Part shown: positions 1,667 through 63,658 of the stretch, piece after piece | Layout of the letters: each line of letters begins with the position of its first letter | Position numbering within the stretch: the stretch's first letter is position 1 | Virus record (IMG/VR): IMGVR_UViG_3300008116_000002 | From: a virus | Taxonomy: Duplodnaviria > Caudoviricetes | Strand: one strand, 5' to 3' | Length of the DNA stretch: 64,000 bases | Program-made: the position numbers and the translations under genes | Notes under the pieces: model-generated | Database searches by the model: none | The model's input: the letters and a program-made list of their open reading frames with translations, nothing else | What the model was told of the DNA's origin: nothing

Positions 1667-1667
1667 C

Positions 1668-3401: not shown

Positions 3402-3402
3402 T

Positions 3403-3609: not shown

Positions 3610-3613
3610 AATC

Positions 3614-7577: not shown

Positions 7578-8059
7578 TGAGTATTATTATAGAGAAAGAT
7601 AATTTTTTGATAACCGATGGTTTAGGTAAAACTAAATTTTCTTTAGATAGAAGAATTCCTCACATTATTTACAATTTACCTGGACTTAATACAATACCTA
7701 GAATTACAGAAGCAGACCCAACCGCATCTAATATTGAAAGAACTGATGAGATAATTCTTATCAATAATACGTTAATAAATACTGATGATTATTTTATTCT
7801 TCCATTTATATCTATAAATGGGGGATACGCAGATTCGGGCGATGCCGTAATTAATGCGACAGGATCAACTGTACTTAGAATCATAAAGCAGCCAAGTTCT
7901 GGAGAATTTTTAGGTTCTAGTATTTTAACTTTTAAAGTAGAACCTGAAACTTTAAAAATTGTATGTAAACATAGTTTCGAAAGAAAAGGATATACCAATA
8001 TAGAAGGGGATGACCCGATTGTTATATCCTACAGAGTATACTACGGGAGATTTTCATGA
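7574..8059 (+). CDS. hypothetical tail-associated protein
   Basis: 161 aa, overlapping start/stop with both neighbours. Confidence 0.5.
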   Translation: MMSIIIEKDNFLITDGLGKTKFSLDRRIPHIIYNLPGLNTIPRITEADPTASNIERTDEIILINNTLINTDDYFILPFISINGGYADSGDAVINATGSTVLRIIKQPSSGEFLGSSILTFKVEPETLKIVCKHSFERKGYTNIEGDDPIVISYRVYYGRFS

Positions 8060-8274
8060 CACTACAAGTGACGAATTTATCAGTTAACTATTTAGAAGAC
8101 TTTACTAAGATTACCTTAGAAGTTTATACGATGCAAGGTACCGTAGAAAAATTAAAAGATAAATTAATTCTAACACTGCCCGGTAAATATAATTCTATTA
8201 ACGATACTTTAATGGAAGAAGTCGAAAAAGAATTAGTAAAAAACGGATTTAATTACACACCTTTGGTAAACTAA
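8056..8274 (+). CDS. hypothetical protein (possible fibre assembly chaperone)
   Basis: 72 aa, ATGA overlap with the upstream gene, immediately before the tailspike. Confidence 0.45.
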   Translation: MTLQVTNLSVNYLEDFTKITLEVYTMQGTVEKLKDKLILTLPGKYNSINDTLMEEVEKELVKNGFNYTPLVN

Positions 8275-8276
8275 AA

Positions 8277-9848
8277 ATGGTTACACAAGTTAACAGCCTT
8301 GCCTCTCAACTAGCCTTTGTAGATAAAATACGAGGTAGAAGAAGATCTATAACTGAAACTATAAGATTAGTAAATTCTATTGCAGCAAACACTGCATACG
8401 TAGAACAATTTGGAGCAATCGGTAATGGCACCACAGATGATTCTGCTGCATTTCAATCAGCGATTGATAGTCTTGGTACTACCGGCGGAAAGATAATTTT
8501 ATCTAATGATAGGGTTTATCGTATAGCATCAAATATAACGATCAAACCAAGTTGCCATCTTGAAGGGCAACAAAATATGATTGGTAGTAATGGTTATAAT
8601 TATTTTACCAATTATAATGCAATAGGTGGTTCTATTCGCTTAGATTCTAGAGCAACTATTAATATGAGATCTGGCTCTAGTATAAGCAAGATGTTGATTA
8701 GGCAAAGTAATTTAAATTATCTAAGTCCTACTTCTTTTGCCGGAACAGCTATTACTATATCAGGATCCATAACTAATCTTGGTAATACTGCAATAGCCGC
8801 GGATGATACCAGTGTCAGCGATGTTATGATACTAGGATTTAATCAGGCGATTTTTGCGAATAACTCTCAGCGTTTGCGAGTTACCCAATGTAATATTGAT
8901 TCTAATAACGGTATCCTAGTTAATTCCGCATATGATGTGCCTGTTATTAATCGTGTACATTGCTGGCCTTTTGCAACTATAGCAGCAGTAGCCAGAGGGT
9001 GGGCACCGAATCCTGGTGGTAACGCATTGACCAGAGTTGGTACTGCGTACAAGTTTCAGAATACTGTAGATTGGGGTAAAATTACTGATAGTTTTTCGTA
9101 CGGATATCAACGAGGATTTTGGGTAGATAGTAGTAATAGTTGCGAACTTACAGGTTGCGGCGCCGATAATGTACCCGAAGCCGGAGCTGGAGGTACAGGC
9201 CAAAGTGGAGATATTGGATTCTTAGTTACAGGCGGTAGTACAGATACATTATTAACTAATTGCCAATCTGCAAGTAATGAAAAAGGGTTTTATATTAACA
9301 CGTTGAACAATCTACCCACTCAACTTACTAATTGCGTAGGTTGGTATAATAGAGACCATGGAGTACTAGTAGAAGGTGGCGATGTCACAGTACTTGGGGG
9401 AATTTATAGAAATAGTCAGTATGGAATTAAGGTTGATAGTGCTTCTAGTAATATAAATCTGCAGACAATTAGATTTAGCGATATTAGTACGAAACCTGTA
9501 TTTAGTGCGGGGCCTTCCATAATTATGGAAGGAATTCATTTTGAAAATTGGACCAACAGTTCTCCTGCAATTTTCCCAACATCTAATATCACTGTTCCTG
9601 TTAGCAATGTACTAACTATTCCGAATGAGGGCAAATTCTTTAACGTAACCAGTGCTAGCGGTTTGGGTAACGTACAATATGGATGGCCGGGTAGAACTGT
9701 AACTTTTAAATTTAATTCCAATATTATAGTGTTACAATCAACGGGCGATGCCGGAGGAATTAATTTGAAATCCACTGCAAATACTATGGTATTAACTAAC
9801 GGCACCTTAACGATAGTTAGTGACGGTACTTCTTGGTATGAAACCTAA
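8277..9848 (+). CDS. tailspike / right-handed beta-helix depolymerase (pectate-lyase-3-like)
   Basis: VEQFGAIGNGTTDDSAAFQSAID N-terminal motif followed by Gly/Asn-rich beta-helix repeats. Confidence 0.8.
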   Translation: MVTQVNSLASQLAFVDKIRGRRRSITETIRLVNSIAANTAYVEQFGAIGNGTTDDSAAFQSAIDSLGTTGGKIILSNDRVYRIASNITIKPSCHLEGQQNMIGSNGYNYFTNYNAIGGSIRLDSRATINMRSGSSISKMLIRQSNLNYLSPTSFAGTAITISGSITNLGNTAIAADDTSVSDVMILGFNQAIFANNSQRLRVTQCNIDSNNGILVNSAYDVPVINRVHCWPFATIAAVARGWAPNPGGNALTRVGTAYKFQNTVDWGKITDSFSYGYQRGFWVDSSNSCELTGCGADNVPEAGAGGTGQSGDIGFLVTGGSTDTLLTNCQSASNEKGFYINTLNNLPTQLTNCVGWYNRDHGVLVEGGDVTVLGGIYRNSQYGIKVDSASSNINLQTIRFSDISTKPVFSAGPSIIMEGIHFENWTNSSPAIFPTSNITVPVSNVLTIPNEGKFFNVTSASGLGNVQYGWPGRTVTFKFNSNIIVLQSTGDAGGINLKSTANTMVLTNGTLTIVSDGTSWYET

Positions 9849-29103: not shown

Positions 29104-29603
29104 TGGAACAATCAAACGTCGTACTCATAAAATTAATAACAGGCGAAAATGTTGTCTGCGAAACAAATGAGGATTGCGATTCTTATATCGAAAAAAAGTT
29201 TATTGATATCTACAATCCTGTGTTGGTAAATGTTTTAAGAATGCCAAGGGGAACTAATCTTGTAGAATCCTATATTATGATGCCCTGGGTAGGATTCGCA
29301 AAAACAGATTTTTGTAGAATAGCTGCAGATAAAGTTATTACTTTAGTAGATGTAGAAGATGGTATACGAGATAACTATATAGATTTTGTAGAAAGACGTA
29401 AAGAAGAACAGGAGGAGGATTCTGAGGATGAAGGCGGTGTTAAGTTTTTAGAATCCCCAAATGAAACAGAAATGGAAATTGAAGAATTTCTTGAACAAGC
29501 CTTAGAAAAATTAGGAGATAACCTTGAAGAAGACGAAGAATACGATGGAAGAGAAGATTCCTATTTTGGAAGAGTTAGAAGAAGTACAAGAACTCTCCAC
29601 TAA
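29103..29603 (+). CDS. conserved hypothetical protein upstream of gp55 (Sm-like N-terminus, acidic tail)
   Basis: LIKLITGENVVC...NPV...MMPW pattern typical of the uvsW-gp55 spacer gene. Confidence 0.55.
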   Translation: MEQSNVVLIKLITGENVVCETNEDCDSYIEKKFIDIYNPVLVNVLRMPRGTNLVESYIMMPWVGFAKTDFCRIAADKVITLVDVEDGIRDNYIDFVERRKEEQEEDSEDEGGVKFLESPNETEMEIEEFLEQALEKLGDNLEEDEEYDGREDSYFGRVRRSTRTLH

Positions 29604-30150
29604 GCAACCTGCAGAGCCTGCTCATTATGTAGACAATAAAAAGTTTTTACAGGCTCTTATAGACTACAGAAAATTAATAGATGCAGCCAATGCTGCAGGT
29701 GAAGAAATTCCTAGAGTTCCTGATTATATAGGTGAGTGCTTTGTTAAGATTGCTACACACTTATCATATAAATCAAACTTCATTAATTACACTTTCCGAG
29801 ATGATATGATTTCGGACGGCATAGAAAATTGTTTAACTGCCGCCGCAAAATTTGATCCTTCAAAATCATCCAATCCATTTGCTTATTATACCCAAATCAT
29901 TTATTTTGCCTTTATTCGTAGAATACAAAAAGAGAAAAAGCATCAGGCGACTAAATACAAAATAATTGAAAACTTAGATTTAGATTCAATTATTCAACAA
30001 AATGATGACAGCGAATCTGCAAGACAATTGATAGAGTTTTTGAAAAAACAATTGGATGGAATCGATCCCGAAAAAAGAGAAACTCCTGCTCAAACCAAAG
30101 CTAGAAAAAAGAAACAGTCTGAACCATCTATGGACTTTTTGGATGAATAA
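29545..30150 (+). CDS. gp55: late-transcription sigma factor gp55
   Basis: HYVDNKKFLQAL...YIGECFVKIATHLSYKSNFINYTFRDDMISDGIENC...NPFAYYTQIIYFAFIRRIQKEKK; C-terminal SMDFLDE clamp-binding motif; ATG at 29545 preferred to the track start at 29524. Confidence 0.96.
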   Translation: MEEKIPILEELEEVQELSTKQPAEPAHYVDNKKFLQALIDYRKLIDAANAAGEEIPRVPDYIGECFVKIATHLSYKSNFINYTFRDDMISDGIENCLTAAAKFDPSKSSNPFAYYTQIIYFAFIRRIQKEKKHQATKYKIIENLDLDSIIQQNDDSESARQLIEFLKKQLDGIDPEKRETPAQTKARKKKQSEPSMDFLDE

Positions 30151-30153
30151 TAT

Positions 30154-30750
30154 ATGGATCATGATTTAGAATTTGAGAAGCAATATTGGAATACTTGCGT
30201 TAATACTTTTTATGAGGACAAGAAGCAGTATACATATGCTAGTTATATGGGATTAACTAGAATGTGGGATAGTTTTGATGTACAACATAAAACCATTCTG
30301 GATATTGGTGGCGGTCCTAGTAGTATGCTTTTGCGATGCGTAAATTTAAAAAAAGGAAAGATAGTAGATCCCATAGATTATCCGCAATGGACAAAAGATA
30401 GATATGCAATTCATAATGTAGATGTTGAAGTAAACTATGGTGAAAATATAAATGAAAAAGGTTGGGATGAGGTTTGGATATATAATTGTTTACAACATGT
30501 TGAAAGTCCAGAAAAAATATTATTGAATGCGTTGAAGGCGGGAAAATTACTAAGACTTTTTGAATGGATAAACATTCCTCCGCATCCCGGACATCCTCAC
30601 GAGTTGACTTCTTCACTATTTTATAATATACTTACGGATGTTACTAAAACTAAATACTCCAGTGTAGTGAATCTTTGGGACGAGCCTTCGGCTTGTTATG
30701 GTGAAGCTTTTTATGATGTTTTTGAATCGTTAATATATGAGCAAAATTAA
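30154..30750 (+). CDS. class I SAM-dependent methyltransferase
   Basis: ILDIGGGPSS SAM-binding motif; YNCLQHV...PEKIL. Confidence 0.75.
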   Translation: MDHDLEFEKQYWNTCVNTFYEDKKQYTYASYMGLTRMWDSFDVQHKTILDIGGGPSSMLLRCVNLKKGKIVDPIDYPQWTKDRYAIHNVDVEVNYGENINEKGWDEVWIYNCLQHVESPEKILLNALKAGKLLRLFEWINIPPHPGHPHELTSSLFYNILTDVTKTKYSSVVNLWDEPSACYGEAFYDVFESLIYEQN

Positions 30751-31591
30751 AGTATCTGAATTATTTTATTCTATCCAAGGTGAGGGGCGTTATATGGGCG
30801 TCCCTTCAATCTTTCTTAGAACCTTCGGTTGTAATTTTACATGCGATGGATTTGGTGTACCGAAAGGATTTGTAAATCATGCGCGAGACATTGTCGCCAA
30901 AGACGTTCATCTTTATAAGACTTATAAAGAGCTTCCTCTTGTATCCACTGGTTGTGATTCATACGCTAGTTGGGATCCTCGTTTCAAGCATCTTTCTCCC
31001 GTTCTATCTTGTGACAGTGTTGCCGAGGCAATTGTCGAACTACTTCCACACAAAGAGTGGAAAGACGAACATCTAGTTATTACGGGTGGAGAACCCTTAT
31101 TGGGTTGGCAAAAAGCATACCCACTATTGTTAGAGCATCCTAAGATGAAAAATTTGGATGAACTAACTTTTGAGACTAATGGTACTCAGCGTTTGAATCC
31201 TGAGTTAGAAGAATATCTATTTCAGGAATGGACTCGGTTTGGTCGAGACTATGATAAGTTAACTTTTTCAGTATCGCCTAAATTATCGGTATCGGGTGAA
31301 TCAAAAGAAGATGCTTTGAAACCTGAAGTAATTAAACAGTATCAGGATGTAGGATATACTTATCTAAAGTTTGTTGTGGCTTCGGAAGAGGATTTAAATG
31401 AAGCTGAAGAATGGATTGAGGAATATAAAAAGGCAGGCTTTAGTGGCCCAGTATATTTTATGCCGGTAGGTGGAGTCGAATCTGTTTACGTCTTAAATAA
31501 TAAGAAGGTGGCAGAGTTGGCGTTGAAAAGAGGTTATAGGTATTCTGATAGATTGCAGGTGCCTTTATTTAAAAATGAATGGGGCACTTAA
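30737..31591 (+). CDS. queE: 7-carboxy-7-deazaguanine synthase (radical SAM)
   Basis: ELFYSIQGEG...PSIFLRTFGCNFTC...CDS, VITGGEPL, FETNGT, SVSPKL, LKFVV, R(L)QV..F..EWGT. Confidence 0.9.
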   Translation: MSKIKVSELFYSIQGEGRYMGVPSIFLRTFGCNFTCDGFGVPKGFVNHARDIVAKDVHLYKTYKELPLVSTGCDSYASWDPRFKHLSPVLSCDSVAEAIVELLPHKEWKDEHLVITGGEPLLGWQKAYPLLLEHPKMKNLDELTFETNGTQRLNPELEEYLFQEWTRFGRDYDKLTFSVSPKLSVSGESKEDALKPEVIKQYQDVGYTYLKFVVASEEDLNEAEEWIEEYKKAGFSGPVYFMPVGGVESVYVLNNKKVAELALKRGYRYSDRLQVPLFKNEWGT

Positions 31592-32254: not shown

Positions 32255-32932
32255 ATGTCATATAACAAAACAAAAACTGACCCTGAACTTGGTGCAAGGG
32301 TACATGAACATCTTGTAAAGATGGGCGTGGAAACTCCCTCATTTAAAACAACACTAGACCGTAAAGATAAGATTGCAGAAATTGAAAAAAGTTTCAGTCA
32401 TATCATGCAGGTATTGGGTCTTGATTTAGACGACGATAGTCTAGCAGAAACTCCAAAGCGTGTTGCTAAGATGTACGTGAATGAAATTTTCTGGGGACTA
32501 GATTACGACGCATTCCCTAAGTGTACTACTGTTGATAATAAGATGCATTACAATGAAATGGTAGTAGAACGTAATGTCATTGTTCAAAGTAATTGCGAAC
32601 ATCACTTTGTAGTTATTGACGGTCTTGCTACAGTAGCATATGTACCTAATAAAAAAGTATTGGGACTAAGTAAAATTAATCGTATTGTGGAATACTTTAG
32701 TAAGCGTCCACAGATTCAGGAACGTCTAACAGAGCAAATTTTTCATGCACTAAGTTATATTCTTGAAACAGATGATGTCGCAGTAATGATTGATGCTCAG
32801 CATTACTGTGTAAAATCTCGAGGCGTAGAAGATACGGGCAGTTCGACAGTAACAGTTCGTCTCGGTGGTGGCTTTAAAACCGATCCTGCAGCAAGAAATG
32901 AATTTTTAAGTATTGCCCGAATGGGAAAATAA
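32255..32932 (+). CDS. folE: GTP cyclohydrolase I
   Basis: ETPKRVAKMY, SNCEHHF, LGLSKINRIVEYFSKRPQIQERLT, HYCVKSRGV. Confidence 0.96.
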   Translation: MSYNKTKTDPELGARVHEHLVKMGVETPSFKTTLDRKDKIAEIEKSFSHIMQVLGLDLDDDSLAETPKRVAKMYVNEIFWGLDYDAFPKCTTVDNKMHYNEMVVERNVIVQSNCEHHFVVIDGLATVAYVPNKKVLGLSKINRIVEYFSKRPQIQERLTEQIFHALSYILETDDVAVMIDAQHYCVKSRGVEDTGSSTVTVRLGGGFKTDPAARNEFLSIARMGK

Positions 32933-33445: not shown

Positions 33446-34806
33446 ATACGTATCGTAAAAGAATTGCATTTTGCTTAAGTGATCAACATACTATCCCTCA
33501 TGGTGGCCTTGGTCAATTTGCTAAATCCTTCGTTGAGACTTTTACCCCTCTCGGATATAAGATCGATATCATCACAGACAAACCCACAACCAATTTAGAT
33601 TTTAAAAAATATTTAGAATCAGTTGGTGCTAACTTCGAATGGTGTCCTCAACCAATATCATATAGTAATCACACCAAAACATTTATGTTTGAAGATTCCT
33701 ATAACTTTGAGAAGATGGCATCGTTTAGAGATGCTATGATGCATGCTTTAAGTAGAAATCTCTATGACATTATTATCTGCAACACATTAGAATCTTTTCC
33801 CGCAATCTATTCGTTGAACCTACACAAAAATGTACAAATTATTTACTATACTCACAACGAAAGTATGGTATTTCTTGATGACAGAACTTGGAAGAATGAA
33901 TTTACAGAATCCTTTAACGAGGTGTTCAACGCATTGATGCGTGTTAAAGGCATTACTATAGGTACACAGACAGAGAGAAATTTAGTAGAATTAAATCATA
34001 ATGGTATTTTAAATTCAGAGTGTTTACCGATTCCAATGACTGAAACTAGTTTGTTGGAAGAAAATTTTAATATTAGAGAAGGTATTCTTTGGATCGGTCG
34101 TTGGGAGCCAAGAAAGAATCCTGATGAATATATTCGAGTAATTAAAGAAACAGGATTGCCTGCAAAAATTATTACCAATACAAATGGTGCAAAAAAGTTC
34201 GCAGCTGAACTAGATGCAATAGGCGCTAAATATGAGATGAAGGTTGGGGTGTATGGAAAAGAGAAATCTGATTTTCTAAGATCTGCTAGGATAGCATATA
34301 ACCCTGCTATTCGAGAAAGTTTTGGATTGGCATTTTGGGAAACGCTTGGACATATGCCAACCTTTGCTTTAGATGGTATGTCTTGGTTGAAAAATTTTAA
34401 TAGTACTTTTTACTTTGCCGAAAGTAAAAATGTAATGGTCAATAAAATTAAAGATGCCTACGAAAAATATTCTAATCCAAAAGATTGGTATGATACTGGA
34501 GCATTAGAATATGTTAAGAACATTAATAACGAAGGTATCAAAAAATGGATTGCCTGCTTTGATAGTTTTAAACCAACTCAATCAAATTCAGATAAAGCAA
34601 AAATTAATGAAGTGGAAACCACATCATATAAAGAGTTCATTATAAGTCTAGAAAGAAAGGCTTTGGCTATCGACGATGTCAAATCTGTATTGACAAACAA
34701 AGGAAAATTTAATATAATCTATACTGATGAGAACACTTATTTAACCAAAGATAAAGACTTTATACCAACCGAAAGAAGTAACTCCTTAGAAAGTTTATTT
34801 GTATGA
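33442..34806 (+). CDS. GT-B (GT4-like) glycosyltransferase with a C-terminal clamp-binding-like motif
   Basis: PHGGLGQF, ILWIGRWEPRKNP, RESFGLAFWE (E-x7-E); ends SLESLFV. Confidence 0.8.
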   Translation: MNTYRKRIAFCLSDQHTIPHGGLGQFAKSFVETFTPLGYKIDIITDKPTTNLDFKKYLESVGANFEWCPQPISYSNHTKTFMFEDSYNFEKMASFRDAMMHALSRNLYDIIICNTLESFPAIYSLNLHKNVQIIYYTHNESMVFLDDRTWKNEFTESFNEVFNALMRVKGITIGTQTERNLVELNHNGILNSECLPIPMTETSLLEENFNIREGILWIGRWEPRKNPDEYIRVIKETGLPAKIITNTNGAKKFAAELDAIGAKYEMKVGVYGKEKSDFLRSARIAYNPAIRESFGLAFWETLGHMPTFALDGMSWLKNFNSTFYFAESKNVMVNKIKDAYEKYSNPKDWYDTGALEYVKNINNEGIKKWIACFDSFKPTQSNSDKAKINEVETTSYKEFIISLERKALAIDDVKSVLTNKGKFNIIYTDENTYLTKDKDFIPTERSNSLESLFV

Positions 34807-36092
34807 GCAAACAATTAGAATATGTTATATCAGGTCCTGCATACTTAAGACTGGGTGCAGAGCAATGTAATGATCCTGAGACTTTAGACATGATTAATAG
34901 CATGATTCTAAATACTGTTCACAATAAAAATAACCATCAGTTTTCTCTTTTGTATAATGGATTTACAGAAAAGAACTTTGGAGCCAAATTACAAAAGTAC
35001 AGACCAGCAATTAAAAATATTCATGCAGACTCAGGCGGTCTGCAAATTATTACTAGGGGTCTACAAAATACTCCTGAGACAAGAGAAAAGGTTTATACGA
35101 ATCAAGGAACCTATGCAGACATAGGTATGGCATTTGACGAAATTCCTGTTAAGGCAACAACTTCATCTGGCACTAGTTCTAAGATTGATACTAAGCGTCG
35201 CTATGTAGATATAGAAAATTTTGATGCTTATGCAAAGCAAACAGGTAAGAATGTAAAAGATCAGATTGAAAAATTTGATGCTATGGGAAGTAAATGCCGA
35301 CCATTTGTTATTGTACAAGGATCGGGTCATGATACCTATGCTAGATGGTCTGAGTTATTATTAAAAGAAATACCACAAAATTTACACAACAGAATAGGCG
35401 GAGTTGCTATGGGATCCGCTGCTTTAGGCATGGGTCCTTTGGAAGATGTTAAACGAGCATTTTATGCAACGACTGTTCCTTTTGATAAACCTTTTCATCT
35501 ACACGTTCTTGGTGTAGGTGCATTAAAACGAATCCTTCCTTATCTATTGTTTAGTCAAACTGGTTTATATGAAGGCATAGATATTTCATATGACTCAACT
35601 ACACATTCTATGTCGCTGGACAATGGATTGTTTTATTTCTCATTTAGCAAAAAGAATGCGCCAGGTGATTATGGCGGATCATCTGTAAAAATGGGAAGGG
35701 CATATTCTAATATTTACAGAACAGTATCTGAAGAAATTAATTCTGTATGTGGTACATCATATGACCCCGAGGAGTATCACAAGTTAATGAATATTGCTGT
35801 TGGACAATATTTAGAAGAAGGCGGAAAGTTTATTGACATTATGAGAGCAAGATTGGGGTTTATTCTAACCAATGTACATAATTTTACATATGACGTTTCT
35901 AATCTAATGAATTCTAAAGAAGCATTTTTAAAATTCTGCAGAGAAAAGAATTGTGAAAACGAATATGCCACATTATTTGACGTAAAAACAATTGATGACT
36001 TCAATCATTGGGAATCTCAGGTAGGTAAATTTATGGATTCAGAGCCAGTGAATATTGTAGCACCATCTTCACTTGAGGAGTTATTTGCATGA
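34803..36092 (+). CDS. dpdA: TGT-fold 7-deazaguanine DNA transglycosylase (DpdA-like)
   Basis: HADSGGLQ (TGT DSGGFQ motif), MAFDEIP, FVIVQG, LHVLGVG, SYDSTTHS; embedded among folE/queD/queE; ends SLEELFA. Confidence 0.75.
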   Translation: MSKQLEYVISGPAYLRLGAEQCNDPETLDMINSMILNTVHNKNNHQFSLLYNGFTEKNFGAKLQKYRPAIKNIHADSGGLQIITRGLQNTPETREKVYTNQGTYADIGMAFDEIPVKATTSSGTSSKIDTKRRYVDIENFDAYAKQTGKNVKDQIEKFDAMGSKCRPFVIVQGSGHDTYARWSELLLKEIPQNLHNRIGGVAMGSAALGMGPLEDVKRAFYATTVPFDKPFHLHVLGVGALKRILPYLLFSQTGLYEGIDISYDSTTHSMSLDNGLFYFSFSKKNAPGDYGGSSVKMGRAYSNIYRTVSEEINSVCGTSYDPEEYHKLMNIAVGQYLEEGGKFIDIMRARLGFILTNVHNFTYDVSNLMNSKEAFLKFCREKNCENEYATLFDVKTIDDFNHWESQVGKFMDSEPVNIVAPSSLEELFA

Positions 36093-36484
36093 TTATTAGG
36101 CAAGACGTTAGACCCAATAAAATGATCTGGGTTACCTTTCGCAAAGAAGGTATTCATTGTTATCCCGCAGCAGCCACAGATCCTAATCTAGCAACAGGAG
36201 ACAAATATGATGTTTCGTTCCTTGCCAATCCTCATCGGCATATTTTTCATTTCAGGGTGTGGATCTCCATCACTCACAATGACCGTGATATCGAGTTCAT
36301 CCAATTCAAACGGTGGTTGGAATCATTGTATTCAGGGGAAGAAGATTGTTTGCGATTGGACTACAAATCATGCGAGATGATGTCAGATGAATTATATGAA
36401 AGAATAACACAAAGATATCCTAATAGAGAAGTTTGGATTGAAGTATCCGAAGATGGTGAGAATGGTTCTTTTATTAAATACTGA
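36089..36484 (+). CDS. QueD-paralog T-fold protein, DpdL-like (putative CDG decarboxylase)
   Basis: FLANPHRHIF = LxxxHRHxF in place of the QueD CxxxHGH; SCEMM..ELY...EVSEDGENG resembles the QueD C-terminus. Confidence 0.55.
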   Translation: MIIRQDVRPNKMIWVTFRKEGIHCYPAAATDPNLATGDKYDVSFLANPHRHIFHFRVWISITHNDRDIEFIQFKRWLESLYSGEEDCLRLDYKSCEMMSDELYERITQRYPNREVWIEVSEDGENGSFIKY

Positions 36485-36491
36485 GGTTTAA

Positions 36492-37670
36492 ATGAATAAA
36501 TTATATTACATGGGCTTAGAGCCTTACGAAGGTAGATATACTCTTCAGCTTCAACAATGGAATGAAGAAGTATTTAAACGTCGAGGCATTAATTATGAAA
36601 TTATTCATGGTGATACCTTAGATAATTCTAAAGCAATTGTCACGGGACAAGTATTAGATGCACATGGAAGAAGCTATTATTCTTTGACGCAGATGGCAAA
36701 GCTTGTTCAAAAGATGAAAGCGGGCGAAATAAGATATGATGATGTAATTTTCTTTGAGGATATGTTTACCCCCGGTATAGAAGCTCTTCCATATATTATG
36801 GATCAGTGTGGCTGGGAATATCAACCAAGAGTTTTTGTTCGTTGTCTAGCACAGACTATTGATCCTGATGACTTTCTTCATGTCTGGGATATGCAGGAGT
36901 GGATGGCACATTATGAGAAGATGGTAAATGTATGGGTAAACGGAGTTCTTGCTTCTAATGAAGAAATGGTAGCCCATATGAAAATTGCAGGTTGGAATGT
37001 TCCTATGTATAATATTTCTGGTCTTGCTTTTAGTAAAGATGAAGTTAGAAGTAGAGTTAAGGAAATTAAACCTTTTCAGGAAAGAAAAAATCGAGTTGTC
37101 TTTGCTGCAAGATTCGATCAAGAAAAACAACCTGATTTCTTTATGGATATTGTAGAACATTATGGGCCTAATTCTGATATAGAATTTGCAGTATTGTCAG
37201 GTGGCCCATTACGCAGCAATGATGAAAAATATTTAGAAAGAGCAAAGCAACTTCAGGCTACTAATTCTAATTTTAAAATTTATGAAAATTTGCAAAAGAA
37301 TGAATATTATGAAATTCTTGCAGATTCGAAAGTTCTATTTAATTGCGCACTACAGGATTGGGTAAGTAATACTGCATCAGAAGCAGACGCTCTAGGAACA
37401 AATTGTTTATTTCCTGCGTATAGATCATTCCCTGAGACTTTTGCTAATGATGCAGAATGCCTTTATATCCCTTGGTCAAAAGAAGACGCTACAAATAAAC
37501 TTGAATGTTTATTAGAATTTCCTAGAAGCAATATAGGTAAACTAGCAGATTGGACTTCAGGAACTATTGATAGATGTTTAGATATTATTCTTTCAAATCC
37601 TGCAGCAAATGAGTATAATAGAAATGTTAAAACATATCGAAACTTTTTAGCACAAAGTAAATATGAATAA
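36492..37670 (+). CDS. GT-B glycosyltransferase
   Basis: VVFAARFDQEKQPDFF, LQKNEYYEIL, ALQDWVSNTASEADALG. Confidence 0.75.
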   Translation: MNKLYYMGLEPYEGRYTLQLQQWNEEVFKRRGINYEIIHGDTLDNSKAIVTGQVLDAHGRSYYSLTQMAKLVQKMKAGEIRYDDVIFFEDMFTPGIEALPYIMDQCGWEYQPRVFVRCLAQTIDPDDFLHVWDMQEWMAHYEKMVNVWVNGVLASNEEMVAHMKIAGWNVPMYNISGLAFSKDEVRSRVKEIKPFQERKNRVVFAARFDQEKQPDFFMDIVEHYGPNSDIEFAVLSGGPLRSNDEKYLERAKQLQATNSNFKIYENLQKNEYYEILADSKVLFNCALQDWVSNTASEADALGTNCLFPAYRSFPETFANDAECLYIPWSKEDATNKLECLLEFPRSNIGKLADWTSGTIDRCLDIILSNPAANEYNRNVKTYRNFLAQSKYE

Positions 37671-38693: not shown

Positions 38694-39221
38694 ATGGCAA
38701 AATTTTATTCAACAAAAACTTATGGTAATGACAGAGGATTGTCATGTTGTTTCAGACAATGGCGTGCTACACATAGTCATTGTTCAACATTGCATGGTTA
38801 CTCAATTGGTATTAAACTCATATTTGAATGCGATACACTAGATGATAAAAATTGGTGTATGGACTTTGGTGGTCTTAAAGAATTCAAAGCATGGGCAGAT
38901 CATATGTTCGATCACACATTAGTTGTTGCAGAAGACGACCCGCTGTTAGATCGTTTTAAAGAAATGAGCGGCTGGAGTTCTAATCCAGAGCATGACGGCA
39001 ATCCTGAGCGAGTACAAGTAGAACCATATCGCAGATCGGGTGTTTGTGATCTACGTATTGTACCTTCTGTAGGATGTGAAATGTTTGCTAAACTATGCTA
39101 TGACAAAATGGCAGAACTGTTGGCATCAGGTAGTATGCGCTATCCAATCAATCCAAGCGTAAGAGTAAAATCTGTAGAAGTATTTGAACATGCAGGTAAC
39201 TCTGCTACATATGAAGGATAA
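38694..39221 (+). CDS. queD: 6-carboxy-5,6,7,8-tetrahydropterin synthase
   Basis: HSHCSTLHGY, WCMDFGGLK...FDHTL, GCEMFAK, SVEVFEHAGNSA. Confidence 0.9.
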   Translation: MAKFYSTKTYGNDRGLSCCFRQWRATHSHCSTLHGYSIGIKLIFECDTLDDKNWCMDFGGLKEFKAWADHMFDHTLVVAEDDPLLDRFKEMSGWSSNPEHDGNPERVQVEPYRRSGVCDLRIVPSVGCEMFAKLCYDKMAELLASGSMRYPINPSVRVKSVEVFEHAGNSATYEG

Positions 39222-39717
39222 AACAAATATAGCAAAAGGTGTCAATAGTAAGGATGAGAAGATAGGTGATTTGACTGTAGCATTTATTAATCAAAGCACT
39301 TCTGAATATCCCGTTACTGTTGGCACCGCAAAGTTTGAACCTGTTCCCGTAACTAAACAAAAAGATTTAATGTTGAATGTAGCTAGACTACATGCACAAC
39401 AAGAGTATGATAGAATAATGGAATTAGTTGCTGTGCTTCAAAAGCAAGCTAAGCAAATTATGAAGCGGCTGGAGTTTACAGATAAAGTCCATGCTGCAGA
39501 ATATAAGTTTCAAATTTATCATGGACAATGTTATTGGTTAGCCTTTGATCTTAATATTAAAAAATATATTTTACACCACTTAGGACCAAATGATTGGTCT
39601 ACTGGCACACCCGATAATTTACAATACGTTACTCGTGTCAAATGGTTAGGTGATCATACCTGGTTAGAAGTCGATGAACATGGAAATACAATAAATGAAA
39701 ATAGCGCTAGTTACTGA
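39211..39717 (+). CDS. DUF2452-like protein
   Basis: ARLHAQQEYDRIMELVAVLQKQA...AEYKFQIYHGQCYWL...LGPNDW; ATG at 39211 preferred to the track start at 39184. Confidence 0.55.
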   Translation: MKDKTNIAKGVNSKDEKIGDLTVAFINQSTSEYPVTVGTAKFEPVPVTKQKDLMLNVARLHAQQEYDRIMELVAVLQKQAKQIMKRLEFTDKVHAAEYKFQIYHGQCYWLAFDLNIKKYILHHLGPNDWSTGTPDNLQYVTRVKWLGDHTWLEVDEHGNTINENSASY

Positions 39718-40747
39718 TACACACTTTGGTGCAAGATCAGACTCCTTGGCATTTGATGCTTACTTCAAAAAGTTTTATCAAGAAGTATTTTTCCCAGAAT
39801 TAGATAAGAGAGGCATTGAAAAGATAATACATCTTGGAGATTGCTTTGATCGTCGCAAATATGTAAATTTTAATTCTTTGAAATCCTGCAGAGAGTATTT
39901 CTTCGATGAGGTAACTAAAAGAAATATTCAAATGGACATGATCGTAGGTAACCATGATACATTTTTTAAAAATACCAATGATGTAAATTCGCCTGATCTT
40001 TTACTAGGAGAATATAATAACATACTAGCATTTGATCGCCCGACGGAAGTAGATGGTATCGTTTACTTGCCTTGGTTGTGTGCAGATAATTATCATGAAG
40101 CAACTGATCTAATTAAGAAAACTAAATCAAAAGTTTGTTTCGGACATTTAGAAATTGCAGGTTTCGTAATGTTCAAAGGACAAAACACTCATGAATCGCA
40201 TGAAGGATTAGATCCCGGGATGTTTAAGAAATTTGATTTAGTATGCTCTGGTCATTACCACCACAAACATAGCAAAGGTAATATACATTATCTAGGTAAT
40301 CCCTATCAGATGTTTTGGAATGATCATGAAGATGATCGTGGATTCCATATATTTGATACTGAAACTTTAGAGTTAGAGTTTATTAAAAATCCTTTTTCTA
40401 TCTTTGAGAAATATTACTACGATGATGAGAAAGAGGATCCCGATTCTATAGATTCGGATGTGTTTGCTAAAAAATTAATTAAACTTATTGTTGTCAATAA
40501 AAAGGACTTCGTAAAATTTGATAGGTTTATAGAAAGAATATATTCAAAAGAACCTATTGAATTAAAAATTATTGAGGACTTTTCTGAATTCGAAGCCGAA
40601 GCACTAGACGAATCTATTGACTTAGAAGACACAATGACATTATTATCTAACTATGTAGATAGTGTAGAGACAGATGCCGATAGAGATAAAATAAAAGGTA
40701 TTCTGAGAACACTATACGTTGAAGCGCAGCACTATGAGGAAGCATGA
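39695..40747 (+). CDS. gp47: recombination nuclease subunit gp47 (Mre11/SbcD-like)
   Basis: TDTHFG, HLGDCFDRRK, IVGNHD, FGHLE, SGHYH, YLGNPYQ. Confidence 0.95.
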   Translation: MKIALVTDTHFGARSDSLAFDAYFKKFYQEVFFPELDKRGIEKIIHLGDCFDRRKYVNFNSLKSCREYFFDEVTKRNIQMDMIVGNHDTFFKNTNDVNSPDLLLGEYNNILAFDRPTEVDGIVYLPWLCADNYHEATDLIKKTKSKVCFGHLEIAGFVMFKGQNTHESHEGLDPGMFKKFDLVCSGHYHHKHSKGNIHYLGNPYQMFWNDHEDDRGFHIFDTETLELEFIKNPFSIFEKYYYDDEKEDPDSIDSDVFAKKLIKLIVVNKKDFVKFDRFIERIYSKEPIELKIIEDFSEFEAEALDESIDLEDTMTLLSNYVDSVETDADRDKIKGILRTLYVEAQHYEEA

Positions 40748-42462
40748 TAAAATTTAAAACTATTCGATGGAAAAACTTTTTATCTACTGGTTCACAATTC
40801 ACCGAAGTTAAATTAGATAGATCTACCACAACTCTTGTTGTGGGTGAAAACGGCGCAGGTAAAAGTACTATCCTAGATGCTCTGTGCTTTGTTCTTTTTA
40901 ACAAACCTTTTAGAAATATCAATAAGCCTCAGTTGATGAACAGCATCAACGGGAAGAATCTTCAAGTTGAGCTAGAGTTTAGTATTGGTCCAAAAGAATA
41001 TAAGGTAGTTCGAGGCATAAAGCCAGGTATCTTTGAAATTTATTCGCAGGGCGAATTGTTGAACCAAGATGCTGCAGCTAAAGATTACCAAAAGTATCTA
41101 GAAGATGGTATTCTAAAATTAAATTATAAATCATTTACTCAAATTGTTATACTTGGCAGCGCATCCTTTACTCCCTTTATGCAGTTACCACTAGGACATC
41201 GAAGAGAAATTATTGAGGATATTTTAGACATACAAATATTCACGGTAATGAACAGTGTTCTAAAAAATAAAATTGCAGATAATAAAGCCAAGATTACAGA
41301 CATAGAAACTAAAATAGAAATAGGCAAGAACAAGGTAAAGTTACAGCAAAGCTACATAAAAACACTTGAAGAAGATAAACAAAAGAAGGTAGAAGATGTA
41401 CGAAAACGAATATCTGAATCGACTGCGGAGATTACAAAACTCAATGGTGACGTTGCAATCGAGAAAGAAAAAGAGACTGGCCTTCAATCCTCTGTACTCG
41501 ATGCGAAGGAGAAGCGCAATAAGAGATCTGAAATGGAAGTTATCCTTAGAAAACTTACCGAAAAAATTAAGAATCAGGAAAAGAATATTGGGTTTTACGA
41601 GCAACATGATGTTTGCCCGACATGTAATCAAGGACTTGACGAACAACATAAACAAGAAGCGATCTCTACGCACACGCACAAGATTGAAGAAGTACAACTT
41701 GCCGTTGAATCTCTCTCCAAAGAACTTGAAGATATTGAAACTAGACTTGATGAGATTGCTGCAATCGAAGAAGAAATATCTCAATGTAAAGAAAATATCA
41801 TCGAGTATAACTCAAAGATAATTAGCGAACAAAACTATATAAAAAGACTGCAAGAGGAAATACAGGAAGAAACAGGTAACGTATCTAATATAGAAGATGA
41901 AAGAGCTACTTTAAAAACATTGGCGAAGGAAGTAGTAGTTTTATCTGAAGATAAAGGTAAGTTAGTTCAGGAAAAACATTACTATGATATTGCGAATATT
42001 CTGTTAAAAGATACAGGAATTAAAACAAAAATTATTCGACAGTATTTGCCCGTTATTAATAAACTGGTAAATAAGTATTTGACCGCAATGGATTTCTTTG
42101 TTCATTTTGAACTTGATGAAACATTCAACGAAACCATAAAGTCAAGACACAGAGATGATTTTTCCTACGCCTCATTTAGTGAGGGCGAAAAGCAAAGAAT
42201 AGATTTGGCATTGCTGTTCACTTGGAGAACTATTGCTAAAATGAAAAATTGCGCTAGCACAAATCTTTTATTGCTTGATGAGGTTTTTGATTCTTCTTTA
42301 GATGCAAACGGAACAGACTATGTAATGAACCTGATAAATACTTTAGGAGACGAGACTAATGTATTCGTCATTAGTCACAAAGGAGATCTTTTATTTGATA
42401 AATTCAGAAGTGTTATCAAATTTGAGAAACAACAAAATTTTTCTAGAATACAAGGAAATTAA
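40744..42462 (+). CDS. gp46: recombination ATPase subunit gp46 (Rad50/SbcC-like)
   Basis: GENGAGKST, zinc hook CPTC, FSEGEKQRIDLALL, LLDEVFDSSLD, ISHK. Confidence 0.96.
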   Translation: MIKFKTIRWKNFLSTGSQFTEVKLDRSTTTLVVGENGAGKSTILDALCFVLFNKPFRNINKPQLMNSINGKNLQVELEFSIGPKEYKVVRGIKPGIFEIYSQGELLNQDAAAKDYQKYLEDGILKLNYKSFTQIVILGSASFTPFMQLPLGHRREIIEDILDIQIFTVMNSVLKNKIADNKAKITDIETKIEIGKNKVKLQQSYIKTLEEDKQKKVEDVRKRISESTAEITKLNGDVAIEKEKETGLQSSVLDAKEKRNKRSEMEVILRKLTEKIKNQEKNIGFYEQHDVCPTCNQGLDEQHKQEAISTHTHKIEEVQLAVESLSKELEDIETRLDEIAAIEEEISQCKENIIEYNSKIISEQNYIKRLQEEIQEETGNVSNIEDERATLKTLAKEVVVLSEDKGKLVQEKHYYDIANILLKDTGIKTKIIRQYLPVINKLVNKYLTAMDFFVHFELDETFNETIKSRHRDDFSYASFSEGEKQRIDLALLFTWRTIAKMKNCASTNLLLLDEVFDSSLDANGTDYVMNLINTLGDETNVFVISHKGDLLFDKFRSVIKFEKQQNFSRIQGN

Positions 42463-45752: not shown

Positions 45753-46916
45753 ATGTCCAAGACGCATTATACTGAGCAACAACGTCAAGAATTGGTTAGC
45801 AAACTAATTGCTACTCATGGTAAAATTCTTGATAAAAAAGACATTCTAAATTTTTGTGAAAATAATAACCTGCCGAATCCGCATTTTTTGATTAGTCGTC
45901 GAGACATTAAGGTGGGGCGTTCATATGATTTGGGAAGATTTGATTCTTTTATTCCTGAAACTGCAGCTGCGTTGACAGCGCAAGTAGTTCCTCTGAAGCA
46001 ACCTAAAATGCATATGGTAGAAGATAGCACAGTTCCGGTCAAAGATTCTACTTATGTTCCTTTTGGTTTCTTTAAGCAACTCGAGCAAATTATCAGCTCA
46101 AAGACTTTCTATCCTGTTTTTATTACTGGTCTATCAGGCAACGGCAAGACTACTATGGTAGAACAGGTTGCTGCTAAGCTTAAACGAGAATGTATTCGAG
46201 TAAATATTAGTATTGAAACAGATGAAGACGATCTAATCGGCGGCAATACTCTGCAGGATGGTAATGTAATCTATCGTGAAGGCCCCGTTATTATGGCAAT
46301 GCGTCGGGGTGCAGTTTTGCTTATTGATGAAATTGATCGTGGTTCCAATAAGCTAATGTGTATGCAAAGTATTCTTGAGGGTAAGCCTTTGTTCAATAAA
46401 AAGACAGGCGAAGTAATTTATCCTGCTCCCGGATTTACTGTTATTGCAACTGCGAACACCAAAGGTCGGGGCACAGAAGATGGTCGATTTATTGCAGCAC
46501 AGATTCTAGATGAGGCTTTTCTAGAAAGATTCCCTATCACTGTTGAACAAGAGTATCCTTCGACTACTGTTGAGAAAAAAATTCTTCGTAACAAGATGAA
46601 TTTTTATGGTAAGCTAGATGAAGAGTTTCTTGAGATGTTAGTCAATTGGGCGGATATTATTCGTAAGACTTTCCAAGAAGGTGGTGTGGATGAGATTATT
46701 AGTACTCGTCGATTGGTAAATATTGCACAGGCGTATTCGATTTTTAATAATCGAGAAGATGCAATTAAGTATTGTATTAATCGATTTGACGATGATACCA
46801 AAACAGCATTTATGGATTTGTATGAAAAGATGTCCACTCCTGTAGAAGCAACCAGTGCTTTGCCGGAACAGGACGTAGCACAAGTAACAAATTTTGATGA
46901 TGATATTCCATTTTAA
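45753..46916 (+). CDS. MoxR/CobS-type AAA+ ATPase
   Basis: ITGLSGNGKT, LLIDEIDRG, ATANTKGRG, LDEAFLERF, ISTRRLV; ends NFDDDIPF. Confidence 0.9.
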   Translation: MSKTHYTEQQRQELVSKLIATHGKILDKKDILNFCENNNLPNPHFLISRRDIKVGRSYDLGRFDSFIPETAAALTAQVVPLKQPKMHMVEDSTVPVKDSTYVPFGFFKQLEQIISSKTFYPVFITGLSGNGKTTMVEQVAAKLKRECIRVNISIETDEDDLIGGNTLQDGNVIYREGPVIMAMRRGAVLLIDEIDRGSNKLMCMQSILEGKPLFNKKTGEVIYPAPGFTVIATANTKGRGTEDGRFIAAQILDEAFLERFPITVEQEYPSTTVEKKILRNKMNFYGKLDEEFLEMLVNWADIIRKTFQEGGVDEIISTRRLVNIAQAYSIFNNREDAIKYCINRFDDDTKTAFMDLYEKMSTPVEATSALPEQDVAQVTNFDDDIPF

Positions 46917-60527: not shown

Positions 60528-60806
60528 ATGATAGAATATAAGTATAATGAGGGTGAGCTATTAAAACAATTTAAAGAATATATCGATGCAACTTATAATC
60601 AACACTATTCTATGAATAGGTATCAGGCTACCGAATTTATTATTGATAATGGACATGGTGTAGGATTTACCGCAGGCAATGTCATGAAATATGTTCAAAG
60701 ATACGGAAAGAAAGCCGGAAGGAATAGACAAGACTTGCTAAAGGTGTTACACTATGCATTAATGCTGTTGTATGTGCATGACATTGAAACTAAGGAGACT
60801 AAATAA
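60528..60806 (+). CDS. conserved hypothetical protein preceding gp45 (DUF3310-like)
   Basis: YKYNEGELL...YIDATYNQHY...GNVMKYVQRYGKK...DLLKVLHYA; ATG at 60528. Confidence 0.6.
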   Translation: MIEYKYNEGELLKQFKEYIDATYNQHYSMNRYQATEFIIDNGHGVGFTAGNVMKYVQRYGKKAGRNRQDLLKVLHYALMLLYVHDIETKETK

Positions 60807-61462
60807 TGCAGATTAGTAATGATACAATTCAAGTTCTAAAGAACTTTGCTACTATTAATTCGAATCTTATGATTCGAAAAGGTAAACGTTTGGCAACAAT
60901 TAGTACAGCAAAAAACATTTTTGCTAAAGCGGAAGTTGCTGAAGAGTTCCCTGTAGAGCTTGCAATCTATGATTTGAATTCCCTTCTTGCTCTATTGACA
61001 TTGATGGAAAATCAAAATGTAGAATTCGGTGAAAAGAGCCTAACCATTTCTAAAGACAATGGTAAGTTTGAATATTTCTATGCATCGCAAAATGTGATTG
61101 TAGCTGCCCCTGAAAAGGATATTGAACTTGATACACATTATCAGTTTAAGCTTACCTCAGAAGATGTGAACATGATTATGAAAGCGGCTGCTATTACAGG
61201 CGCGCCGACTATTTCTATTGTTAGTAAAAATGGTACAGTTAATCTAACAGTAGGTGATCGTAAGAATGATACGGCAAATAATTATAAGAAAACGATTGGC
61301 TCAAGTGAAGAAACTTTCGATTGCCACATGGCAGTAGAAAACTTTAAGGTCATCCCTGATGCATATAATGTAATTATTTCTAAGAAGAAAGCATTCTTAT
61401 TCAAGAGTGAAACTAAATCTACTGAGTATTTTATTGCAATGGAAACCGATTCTGTAGTTTAA
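60806..61462 (+). CDS. gp45: sliding clamp gp45
   Basis: TIQVLKNFATINSNL...AIYDLNSLL...ENFKVIPDAYNV.IS...YFIAME. Confidence 0.93.
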   Translation: MQISNDTIQVLKNFATINSNLMIRKGKRLATISTAKNIFAKAEVAEEFPVELAIYDLNSLLALLTLMENQNVEFGEKSLTISKDNGKFEYFYASQNVIVAAPEKDIELDTHYQFKLTSEDVNMIMKAAAITGAPTISIVSKNGTVNLTVGDRKNDTANNYKKTIGSSEETFDCHMAVENFKVIPDAYNVIISKKKAFLFKSETKSTEYFIAMETDSVV

Positions 61463-61488: not shown

Positions 61489-62430
61489 ATGGAATATCGT
61501 GAAGATGAATTTCTCTGGGTTGAAAAGTTTCGTCCCAGAAAATTAGATGATTGTATTCTCCCACCTAGCCAGAAGAAAGTTTTTCAGGAAATGCTGGCAA
61601 AGGGGGAGATACAAAATATGCTTTTGTGTGGCGGAGCTGGCATGGGCAAGACTACTGTTGCAAGAGCATTGTGTGAAGAACTACAAACTGATTACATTGT
61701 CATTAATGGTTCGGAAGAATCTGGTATTGATGTTCTTCGTACAAAAATTAAACAGTTTGCGTCGGCGGTTTCTTTTAGCGGCAAGCCAAAGGTTGTAATT
61801 TTAGATGAGGCAGACTATCTAAATCCAAATTCTACACAACCTGCTCTTAGAGCTTTTATTGAAGAATTTTCTTCAAATTGCAGATTTATTCTTACTTGTA
61901 ACTTTAAGAATAGAATCATTCCTCCCCTACATTCGAGAACTGCGGTTATTGAATTTAAATTACCTAAGACAGAAAAACCTAAAATTGCTGCAGCATTTTT
62001 TAAACGAGTAAATGAAATACTTGAGATTGAAAAGGTAGAAGCAGATGGAAAGGTAATTGCAAAGGTAATTGAAAAGCATTTCCCTGATTATCGCAGAATT
62101 TTAAATGAACTTCAGAGATACAGCGGTTCAGGTAAAATCGATGAGGGCATCTTTACTAGTCTAGGTGAAAGCAATATGCAAGAGCTTATTGCAACACTAA
62201 AGGATAAAGACTGGAAGAAGATGCGAACCTGGGTGGTCAATAATATTGATAATGACCCACAGACAATTTTTAGAAAAATGTATGATACTTTATGCGATGA
62301 AGTAGTTCAGATTCCTCAATTAGTATTATTACTTGCCGACTATCAGTATAAGTCTGCTTTCTGTGCAGACCAAGAAATCAATCTTGTTGCTTGCCTTACA
62401 GAAATTATGGCAGCAGTGGAGTTTAAATGA
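61489..62430 (+). CDS. gp44: clamp loader large subunit gp44
   Basis: LWVEKFRP, GGAGMGKTT, INGSEE, ILDEADYL, FILTCN, FPDYRRILNELQRY. Confidence 0.96.
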   Translation: MEYREDEFLWVEKFRPRKLDDCILPPSQKKVFQEMLAKGEIQNMLLCGGAGMGKTTVARALCEELQTDYIVINGSEESGIDVLRTKIKQFASAVSFSGKPKVVILDEADYLNPNSTQPALRAFIEEFSSNCRFILTCNFKNRIIPPLHSRTAVIEFKLPKTEKPKIAAAFFKRVNEILEIEKVEADGKVIAKVIEKHFPDYRRILNELQRYSGSGKIDEGIFTSLGESNMQELIATLKDKDWKKMRTWVVNNIDNDPQTIFRKMYDTLCDEVVQIPQLVLLLADYQYKSAFCADQEINLVACLTEIMAAVEFK

Positions 62431-63428: not shown

Positions 63429-63628
63429 GAAAGAAAACTATGAATGATTTCGAAGTACATGAACTTGGAACAACGAAAGAAATTCAATTAAGCAGAGCAC
63501 TTGCTCGTGCTATTCATGATAATGAAGATCGTATTCGTTCCTATAATGTTATGCCAGTTGATGTTTGGAACGCTTATGTCGCACTTAGAAAACATTACGA
63601 CTGGCAAATTGAAAATGAAAAAATGTGA
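63425..63628 (+). CDS. hypothetical protein
   Basis: 67 aa, ATGA overlap with the upstream gene. Confidence 0.5.
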   Translation: MRKKTMNDFEVHELGTTKEIQLSRALARAIHDNEDRIRSYNVMPVDVWNAYVALRKHYDWQIENEKM

Positions 63629-63645
63629 ACGAGATAGTATATTAC

Positions 63646-63653
63646 TATAAATA
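63646..63653 (+). promoter_or_regulatory. T4-type late promoter motif
   Basis: Exact TATAAATA in the intergenic gap, 5 nt before the next ATG. Confidence 0.55.
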
Positions 63654-63658
63654 CTGAT

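Follow-up and report, generated by a model that had tools for sequence, protein, structure and literature searches.

Why would two adjacent and unrelated enzymes of a phage DNA modification cluster end in the same short peptide, and what would that peptide hold on to? The question is raised by a stretch of 64,000 nucleotides from the IMG/VR virus record IMGVR_UViG_3300008116_000002 (Duplodnaviria; Caudoviricetes), here called the window, whose source is a T4-type phage. In it, a GT-B glycosyltransferase (GT1) is directly followed by a DpdA2-type DNA guanine transglycosylase (hereafter DpdA), and both proteins finish with a peptide that resembles the end of the T4 DNA polymerase, gp43. A first-pass annotation, made from the sequence alone, had taken these ends for tails that dock on the sliding clamp, gp45, and this claim is now supported by the conservation of the tails, their identity with the end of gp43, their near-uniqueness in whole genomes, their presence on a replacement enzyme, the codons used to write them and a model of the complex of gp45 with the DpdA tail. 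In our view, it is highly probable that GT1 and DpdA dock on gp45 by these tails as gp43 does by its C-terminal peptide, binding itself being a prediction. DNA modification is, with this, probably tied physically to replication.

GT1 ends in ...ERSNSLESLFV and DpdA in ...VAPSSLEELFA, and the sequences and positions read from the open reading frames (ORFs) are exactly those first annotated (coordinates are collected in the table below). As T4 gp43 ends in ...KASLDFLFG (read, like the other T4 ends given here, from NC_000866), the S-L-E-x-L-F-x of the window corresponds to the T4 polymerase position for position, and both SLESLFV and SLEELFA fit the (S/T)L(D/E)x(L/F)(F/Y) pattern looked for near the C-terminus of a clamp client. 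A third protein of the window, the late sigma factor gp55, ends in ...SEPSMDFLDE, again as annotated, and its T4 counterpart in ...SPSLDFLYEAND. Among approximately 75 plus-strand ORFs of at least 60 amino acids in the window, such a terminal peptide is found in GT1, DpdA and gp55 only; the second glycosyltransferase of the cluster (GT2) was rightly said to lack it, since it ends in ...AQSKYE. Additionally, the phage brings its own clamp and clamp loader: the window contains gp45 and gp44 whole, as had been claimed, while gp62, listed with them, is present only as its first 32 codons.

It has been established that gp43, gp55 and gp33 of T4 end in highly similar, interchangeable clamp-binding epitopes located behind divergent linkers (PMC2988020), and this review agrees with the annotation's premise that the three proteins dock on gp45 by a C-terminal peptide. 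The peptides described here are like those epitopes in lying at the extreme C-terminus, after a divergent flexible linker, in their hydrophobic-acidic character and in reading S-L-(D/E)-x-L-F. They differ at position 4, which is E, D, S or G here and F in T4, and in their carriers, which are a TGT-fold base-exchange enzyme and glycosyltransferases rather than a polymerase or transcription factors.

Tail conservation among homologues bears directly on the annotated claim and speaks for it. Within the best 120 database homologues of each enzyme (40-97% identity for DpdA and 46-100% for GT1), P-x-(S/T)-L-(E/D)-x-L-F plus zero or one residue closes 117 of the 120 DpdA sequences, and L-E-x-L-F plus one residue closes 119 of the 120 GT1 sequences. 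In the DpdA alignment, the 10-15 residues ahead of the motif vary freely and the tail is fixed; a fixed peptide behind a divergent flexible linker, the arrangement expected of clamp clients, is found in both enzymes. The pattern extends to the DpdA2 subfamily, from which 149 diverse members (50%-identity clusters), 144 of them full-length, were retrieved by searching 1.84 billion cluster representatives with a profile. A terminal [LIVMF]xx[LFMWI][FLWMIY], followed by at most three residues, was observed in 124 of the 144 full-length proteins versus 26 of 264 ORFs of at least 100 amino acids in a related complete genome. The strict motif closes 55 of the same 144 proteins versus 4 of the 264 background ORFs, and three of these four are gp43, DpdA and GT1 themselves.

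Six-frame scans of three complete genomes of relatives (G001, BUCT-ZZ01 and ACP17) further indicate how rare such ends are. Of the 699 ORFs of G001 (222 kb), only 4 end in L[DE]x[LFM]F with at most three further residues, namely gp43, DpdA, GT1 and one small ORF. With a wider pattern, [LIM][DE]x[LFM]F and at most three residues, the scan of BUCT-ZZ01 returned gp43, DpdA, GT1 and a gp26-like zinc-ribbon protein, and that of ACP17 returned gp43, DpdA and the gp26-like protein. The small ORF of G001, which has 112 amino acids and ends in KLEKLF, is taken as a chance match to the strict motif. The gp26-like protein is conserved, has approximately 240 amino acids and carries a CxxC zinc ribbon in its C-terminal part; its last residues are GLDDFFV, GLETFFA or GLQNFFV in the three genomes. 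It is labelled as a baseplate hub chaperone in the ACP17 annotation and is apparently a structural protein with a clamp-tail-like end.

The annotation had also pointed to gp43 for comparison, and this comparison, made in relatives, shows that related polymerases share the peptide; the cognate polymerase carries it in every relative examined. For instance, in two complete IMG/VR genomes whose DpdA is 83% identical to that of the window (G001 and G002), gp43 ends in ATLEGLFG and DpdA in SSLEELFG (G001) or SSLEDLFA (G002), with GT1 ending in TLESLFA in G001, and in G003 the ends are ATLEGLFS (gp43) and SLEDLFA (DpdA). Acidovorax phage ACP17 (gp43 PSLDDLFE, DpdA TTLDELFE) and Stenotrophomonas phage Ps15 (gp43 SSLEDLFGW, DpdA NSLDDLFG) have no GT1, and Xanthomonas phage BUDD (gp43 SSLESLFG, DpdA QSLEELFG) has a GT1-like gene elsewhere, without the tail. 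Five further metagenomic lineages (G006-G012) show (S/T)LEDLF in gp43 and (S/N)LE(E/D)LF in DpdA, no GT1 being seen in the locus. An FF-ending gp43 together with an intact DpdA tail occurs in two lineages, Synechococcus phage BUCT-ZZ01 (gp43 STLDDFFS) and G004 (gp43 GSLDDFF), and in both of them DpdA (ASLDSFFD and DLEDFF, respectively) and GT1 (GSLEDFFND and NLDAFFG) also end in FF. Since the LF or FF variant matches across the three proteins, the tails of DpdA and GT1 track the tail of their own phage's polymerase. The DpdA tail of phage pf16 is degenerate (TLDLMCA), its gp43 ending in SLEDFFS. In one more lineage (G005; L127, L208) the ends are unusual on all three proteins (gp43 VLLDFG, DpdA SLELEF, GT1 ISFDDIF), and they may represent the docking peptide in a shifted form.

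A quite different origin of the conserved ends would be a constraint on the nucleotides, imposed by the start codon or ribosome binding site (RBS) of the next gene, or a C-terminal degradation signal. In fact, an ATGA stop/start overlap is present at both genes (the TGA of GT1, at 34804-34806, overlaps the ATG of the DpdA gene), and a GAGGAG inside the DpdA tail codons (36075-36080) could be the Shine-Dalgarno sequence of the DpdL-like gene that follows. Across the homologues, though, the conserved tail positions are written with several synonymous codons (five for L, two for E and two for F), which argues for selection on the peptide, and BUCT-ZZ01 keeps the tail despite a gap after the gene. 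Moreover, gp43 shares the peptide in a different genomic context, and the gp43 tail is established as a clamp-binding epitope and not as a degron (PMC2988020). Overlapping start or RBS signals as the reason for keeping the tails are consequently rejected on the synonymous codon variation, and we regard by-product or degron as an exceedingly improbable account of the ends.

Further evidence comes from the loss of GT1. In eight close relatives GT1 is missing and an unrelated protein of 300 amino acids occupies its place, between the exonuclease gene and dpdA; as this substitute keeps the tail (...KSSLESLFL), three unrelated enzymes of the locus share it. Among cultured phages, relatives of the 300-amino-acid protein could be detected only in two genes that carry a glycosyltransferase annotation (E 1e-9 and 6e-8), and the protein is itself a probable glycosyltransferase. 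Its language-model (Atlas) features point toward the TAGT family of DNA glucosyltransferases, a membership that was not confirmed by Pfam, by a PF20691 search of its contig, or by blastp or hhalign against T6 TAGT.

GT1 itself consists of a GT-B body (residues 1-375), a small alpha/beta domain of approximately 50 residues (approximately 387-435), a floppy linker and the tail; its AlphaFold model has a mean confidence (predicted local distance difference test, pLDDT) of 91.1, the last 14 residues having values of 70 and 50. Its Pfam matches to Glycos_transf_1 and Glyco_transf_4 are weak and under the cut-off, and the top Foldseek matches are sucrose-phosphate synthase, MshA, BshA and WaaG (E 1e-13 to 1e-10). 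A cyanobacterial tetrahydrobiopterin glucosyltransferase also stands among the fold matches, at rank 49.

It could then be argued that the tails do bind gp45 and yet serve timing or localisation, or competition with gp43 or gp55, or that GT1 acts on a small molecule (a pterin or a free base) at the replication factory. The fold of GT1 is a generic GT4 one, and the tetrahydrobiopterin glucosyltransferase among its matches makes a pterin-type acceptor conceivable; the likely inserted base, 7-deazaguanine or 7-carboxy-7-deazaguanine (CDG), would offer no obvious acceptor for a sugar; and the alpha-glucosyltransferase (alpha-GT) of T4 binds gp45, yet promoter strength sets the share of modification (PMC13216743). 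By contrast, a non-homologous glycosyltransferase at the position of GT1 keeps the tail, which points to a need for the clamp, that is, for DNA, and enzymes of the DpdA family have been demonstrated to act on DNA (PMC6884629, PMC10516641). We hold tails of this purpose, or a small-molecule acceptor, to be unlikely, and tails that bring both enzymes to DNA through gp45 remain our preferred interpretation.

The enzyme that precedes the second tail is well defined. The DpdA model (pLDDT 90.9, and 65 in the last block) has the TGT fold, with a Foldseek match to the TGT of Z. mobilis (E 1.3e-9, probability 1.0, TM approximately 0.5), and the protein matches TIGR00430 (Tgt) at E 1e-5, far below the family cut-off. 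By tblastn, it is related to the DpdA genes of KVP40, Stenotrophomonas phage, ACP17 and BUCT-ZZ01 (E 1e-43 to 2e-88), KVP40.0122 being matched, along with 47 further records of Vibrio phages, at E ~1e-48 and 96% coverage. Residues D76, S77, G78, G79, L80 and Q81, as well as an SYDST motif, are invariant in the homologue alignment.

Modelling of the DpdA tail with gp45, a check which the annotation had put forward, gave a positive answer. When the gp45 trimer was combined with DpdA residues 385-429, three runs yielded ipSAE values of 0.62, 0.61 and 0.62, and the best of three controls 0.00; in the calibration of the tool, this mark was attained by 58 of the 80 complexes of solved structure and by 2 of the 110 mismatched pairs. 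Contacts agree between runs by at least 45%, and the pLDDT of the partner is at least 43. In the model, the confident contacts of DpdA (residues 419-428, chiefly L424, L427 and F428) are made with a single gp45 protomer, at residues 32, 35-39, 102-108, 194-196 and 209-214, so that the two domains, the connector between them and the C-terminal strand all contribute to the pocket. Such an arrangement agrees with the RB69 clamp-peptide complex as described in PMC2988020: as in the complex of RB69 gp45 with the polymerase peptide, the tail is predicted to dock on a hydrophobic patch of gp45, on the same face as the C-terminus of the clamp.

These results also bear on the idea that the shared peptide binds some other replisome protein, or that it joins DpdA to GT1. 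According to the T4 biochemistry, peptides of this type do have two alternative binding sites on gp45, so the details of docking are uncertain (PMC2988020). Nevertheless, across all the lineages examined the peptide equals the gp43 end and varies together with it, the partner of gp43 is established as gp45, the model places the peptide in the gp45 pocket with a score that drops to zero once gp45 is replaced, and DpdA keeps its tail in lineages without GT1. A partner other than gp45 thus seems very unlikely to us.

Several observations have to be set against docking on gp45 and its role in modification. The complex model may recall the solved RB69 clamp-peptide complex, and it shows likeness, not binding; besides, the alignments used for it differ from those of the tool's calibration. 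The gp43 gene of the window's phage lies beyond the end of the window, and the gp43 ends were taken from relatives. The DpdA2 of KVP40 has no tail (...EFPAFKEQE), though its gp43 ends in TLESFFG, and two DpdA2 enzymes from Vibrio phages, those of nt-1 and VH7D, are active in E. coli, where no phage clamp is present (PMC10516641); together these points indicate that catalysis does not depend on the tail. For the alpha-GT of T4, clamp binding is not the main determinant of modification levels (PMC13216743). Finally, GT1 has no Pfam match to T4 alpha-GT (PF11440), beta-GT (PF09198) or TAGT (PF20691), and none of these is among its top 50 fold matches. In this context, it is worth considering that the Vibrio phage DpdA2 modifies less than 0.1% of G and that dpdA plus dpdL of ACP17 gave no product in E. 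coli (PMC10516641): taken with the tail on ACP17 DpdA and its absence from that of KVP40, these results fit a role of the clamp in efficiency, a fit that is only a correlation.

If gp45 is indeed the partner, the following sequence of events could be proposed. Each enzyme would consist of a folded catalytic body, a variable flexible linker and the terminal (S/T)-L-E-x-L-F-x, whose two leucines and phenylalanine would insert into the hydrophobic C-face pocket of one gp45 protomer. The gp44/62 loader would place clamps at primer ends, and these would remain on the finished duplex, so that DpdA would be held on freshly made DNA. Bound to the clamp, DpdA would slide on the new phage DNA and swap guanines for a 7-deazaguanine base supplied by FolE, QueD, QueE and the DpdL-like protein. 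As the gp45 trimer has three pockets, GT1 could share a clamp with DpdA. The dependence of activity on the clamp, its timing behind the fork and DNA as the acceptor of GT1 are what we infer from these arrangements. Phage 7-deazaguanine DNA modification is held to be post-replicative (PMC10516641).

The concept of clamp-bound modification is not wholly new, since the alpha-GT of T4 co-purifies with gp45 in pull-downs (PMC13216743), the binding being reported by Sommer et al. 2004 as well. Like GT1 in our interpretation, it is a DNA glycosyltransferase of a T4-type phage on the sliding clamp, proposed to modify along with replication. It differs in belonging to another glycosyltransferase family, in acting on hydroxymethylcytosine and in having no gp43-type tail (it ends in ...KEQFDIITK), whereas here an explicit docking peptide is common to the glycosyltransferase and a base-exchange enzyme.

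A more distant parallel is found in eukaryotes, where DNMT1 binds PCNA through a PIP box and new DNA is modified soon after its synthesis. There, too, the replication clamp serves as the anchor of an enzyme that modifies DNA, although the proteins are unrelated, the motif and the clamp are different, and the reaction is methylation rather than base exchange or glycosylation.

With regard to DpdA2, a subfamily defined on Vibrio phage nt-1 (PMC6884629), the enzyme of the window is homologous to those of nt-1 and VH7D (E ~1e-48 to the KVP40 orthologue), has the TGT fold and stands beside FolE, QueD and QueE. It differs from the KVP40-type enzyme, which is tailless, and its cluster differs in lacking QueC and in containing a DpdL-like gene, two glycosyltransferases and a GalE-like epimerase. 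Literature searches returned no paper linking DpdA or 7-deazaguanine modification to a clamp. The docking peptide is of a known kind, and what is new is its occurrence, in polymerase-type form, on an enzyme of base exchange and on the glycosyltransferases that accompany it.

Such tails would offer a testable answer, DpdA2 riding on clamps, to the question of how base exchange can reach the entire genome fast enough to protect it from host nucleases. They would add further members to the T4 clamp clients known so far (polymerase, transcription factors and alpha-GT), and they make GT1 and its 300-amino-acid substitute candidates for new families of DNA glycosyltransferases. In practice, the reconstitution of tail-bearing systems, for example DpdA plus DpdL of ACP17, may need gp45 and its loader.

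The cluster to which these genes belong is co-oriented and lies between gp55 and gp47/gp46. After gp55 it comprises a phrog_3603 protein, QueE, a small phosphoribosyltransferase, FolE, an Rv2179c-like exonuclease, GT1 and DpdA, followed by the DpdL-like QueD paralogue, GT2, the GalE-like epimerase and QueD. FolE, QueD, QueE and the DpdL-like gene are all found within 5 kb, and no QueC was seen in the window. The signature of DpdL, LxxxHRHxF (PMC10516641), is present in the QueD paralogue. Because the cluster has FolE, QueD, QueE and the DpdL signature and is devoid of QueC, the base inserted is probably 7-deazaguanine or CDG. A megablast of the locus against cultured phages gave no match.

Table. 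Positions of the features discussed (in the window unless another record is named)
Feature	Position	Strand	Evidence or remark
gp55, late sigma factor	29524-30150	+	phrog_234, E 8.7e-60
gp55 end, PSMDFLDE	30124-30147	+	read in the ORF
QueE-like radical SAM enzyme (7-deazaguanine synthesis)	30737-31591	+	phrog_2076, E 2.6e-54
FolE, GTP cyclohydrolase I	32255-32932	+	Pfam PF01227, E 1.5e-61
GT1, GT-B glycosyltransferase, GT4 type, 454 amino acids	33442-34806	+	sub-cut-off Pfam matches, model, Foldseek
GT1 tail codons, SLESLFV	34783-34803	+	read in the ORF
DpdA, DpdA2-type DNA guanine transglycosylase, TGT fold, 429 amino acids	34803-36092	+	phrog_10773, E 9.8e-96
DpdA variable linker (residues ~409-422), between fold and tail	36027-36068	+	free variation among homologues
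DpdA tail codons, SLEELFA	36069-36089	+	read in the ORF
DpdL-like QueD paralogue, LANPHRHIF, no tail	36089-36484	+	phrog_17812
GT2, second GT-B glycosyltransferase, no tail	36492-37670	+	Pfam Glycos_transf_1, E 3.3e-6
QueD (PTPS family)	38694-39221	+	Pfam PF01242, E 1.6e-16
gp47/gp46	39695-42462		far border of the cluster
MoxR/CbbQ-type AAA ATPase	45753-46916		C-terminal NFDDDIPF
gp45, sliding clamp, proposed docking partner	60806-61462	+	phrog_223, E 2.7e-64; Pfam gp45-slide_C; 806 homologues
gp44, clamp loader large subunit	61489-62430	+	phrog_168, E 4.4e-118
Epimerase/dehydratase gene and two small ORFs	62427-63892		between gp44 and gp62
gp62 start, clamp loader small subunit, first 32 codons	63903-63998	+	begins MSLF like T4 gp62; gene runs off the window
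300-amino-acid replacement protein	L035, 9102-10004		also L031-L034, L055, L063, L240-L247
KVP40 DpdA2 locus	L090, 2992-4371		no tail
pf16 DpdA	L092, 2995-4317		degenerate tail
Phage 9g dpdA1 locus	L108 (NC_024146), 36-3960		17 relatives, L109-L125
gp26-like protein	ACP17, 88633-89394; BUCT-ZZ01, 7844-8554; G001, 129246-129935		clamp-tail-like end

In the relative G001, the gp62 homologue is located approximately 4 kb upstream of gp43. In the window, gp44 and gp62, which are adjacent in T4, are separated by a nucleotide-sugar epimerase/dehydratase gene and two small ORFs.

A related arrangement may exist outside the T4-type phages. In phage 9g and 17 relatives, dpdA1 directly adjoins a DnaN-like clamp gene (phrog_947, with a weak match to TIGR00663 at E 1e-5) and the polymerase gene. 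As the PF01702 (TGT) search did not recover the 9g DpdA1, the gene was taken from the annotation of the record. The DpdA1 proteins of this group end in LQDLFDE, LHDLFD, QELF, QRLF, PGLF or QGFF, and their Q-x-(L/F)-F ends resemble the bacterial beta-clamp motif, QL(S/D)LF; by this likeness, viral DpdA enzymes may dock on clamps generally. One could then imagine that docking is a general and repeatedly evolved trait of viral 7-deazaguanine machinery, with gp43-type tails on DpdA2, tails acquired independently by at least two unrelated glycosyltransferases and Q-x-(L/F)-F ends on DpdA1, so that base exchange and further decoration would be the work of a clamp "toolbelt" on new DNA; we put this forward tentatively, as an idea with somewhat less than even chances. 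If true, the toolbelt could explain why some DpdA systems fail or work poorly when expressed without the clamp of their own phage.

As a last observation on C-terminal peptides in the window, the MoxR/CbbQ-type AAA ATPase encoded between the cluster and the clamp genes ends in NFDDDIPF, which resembles the tail of bacterial SSB.

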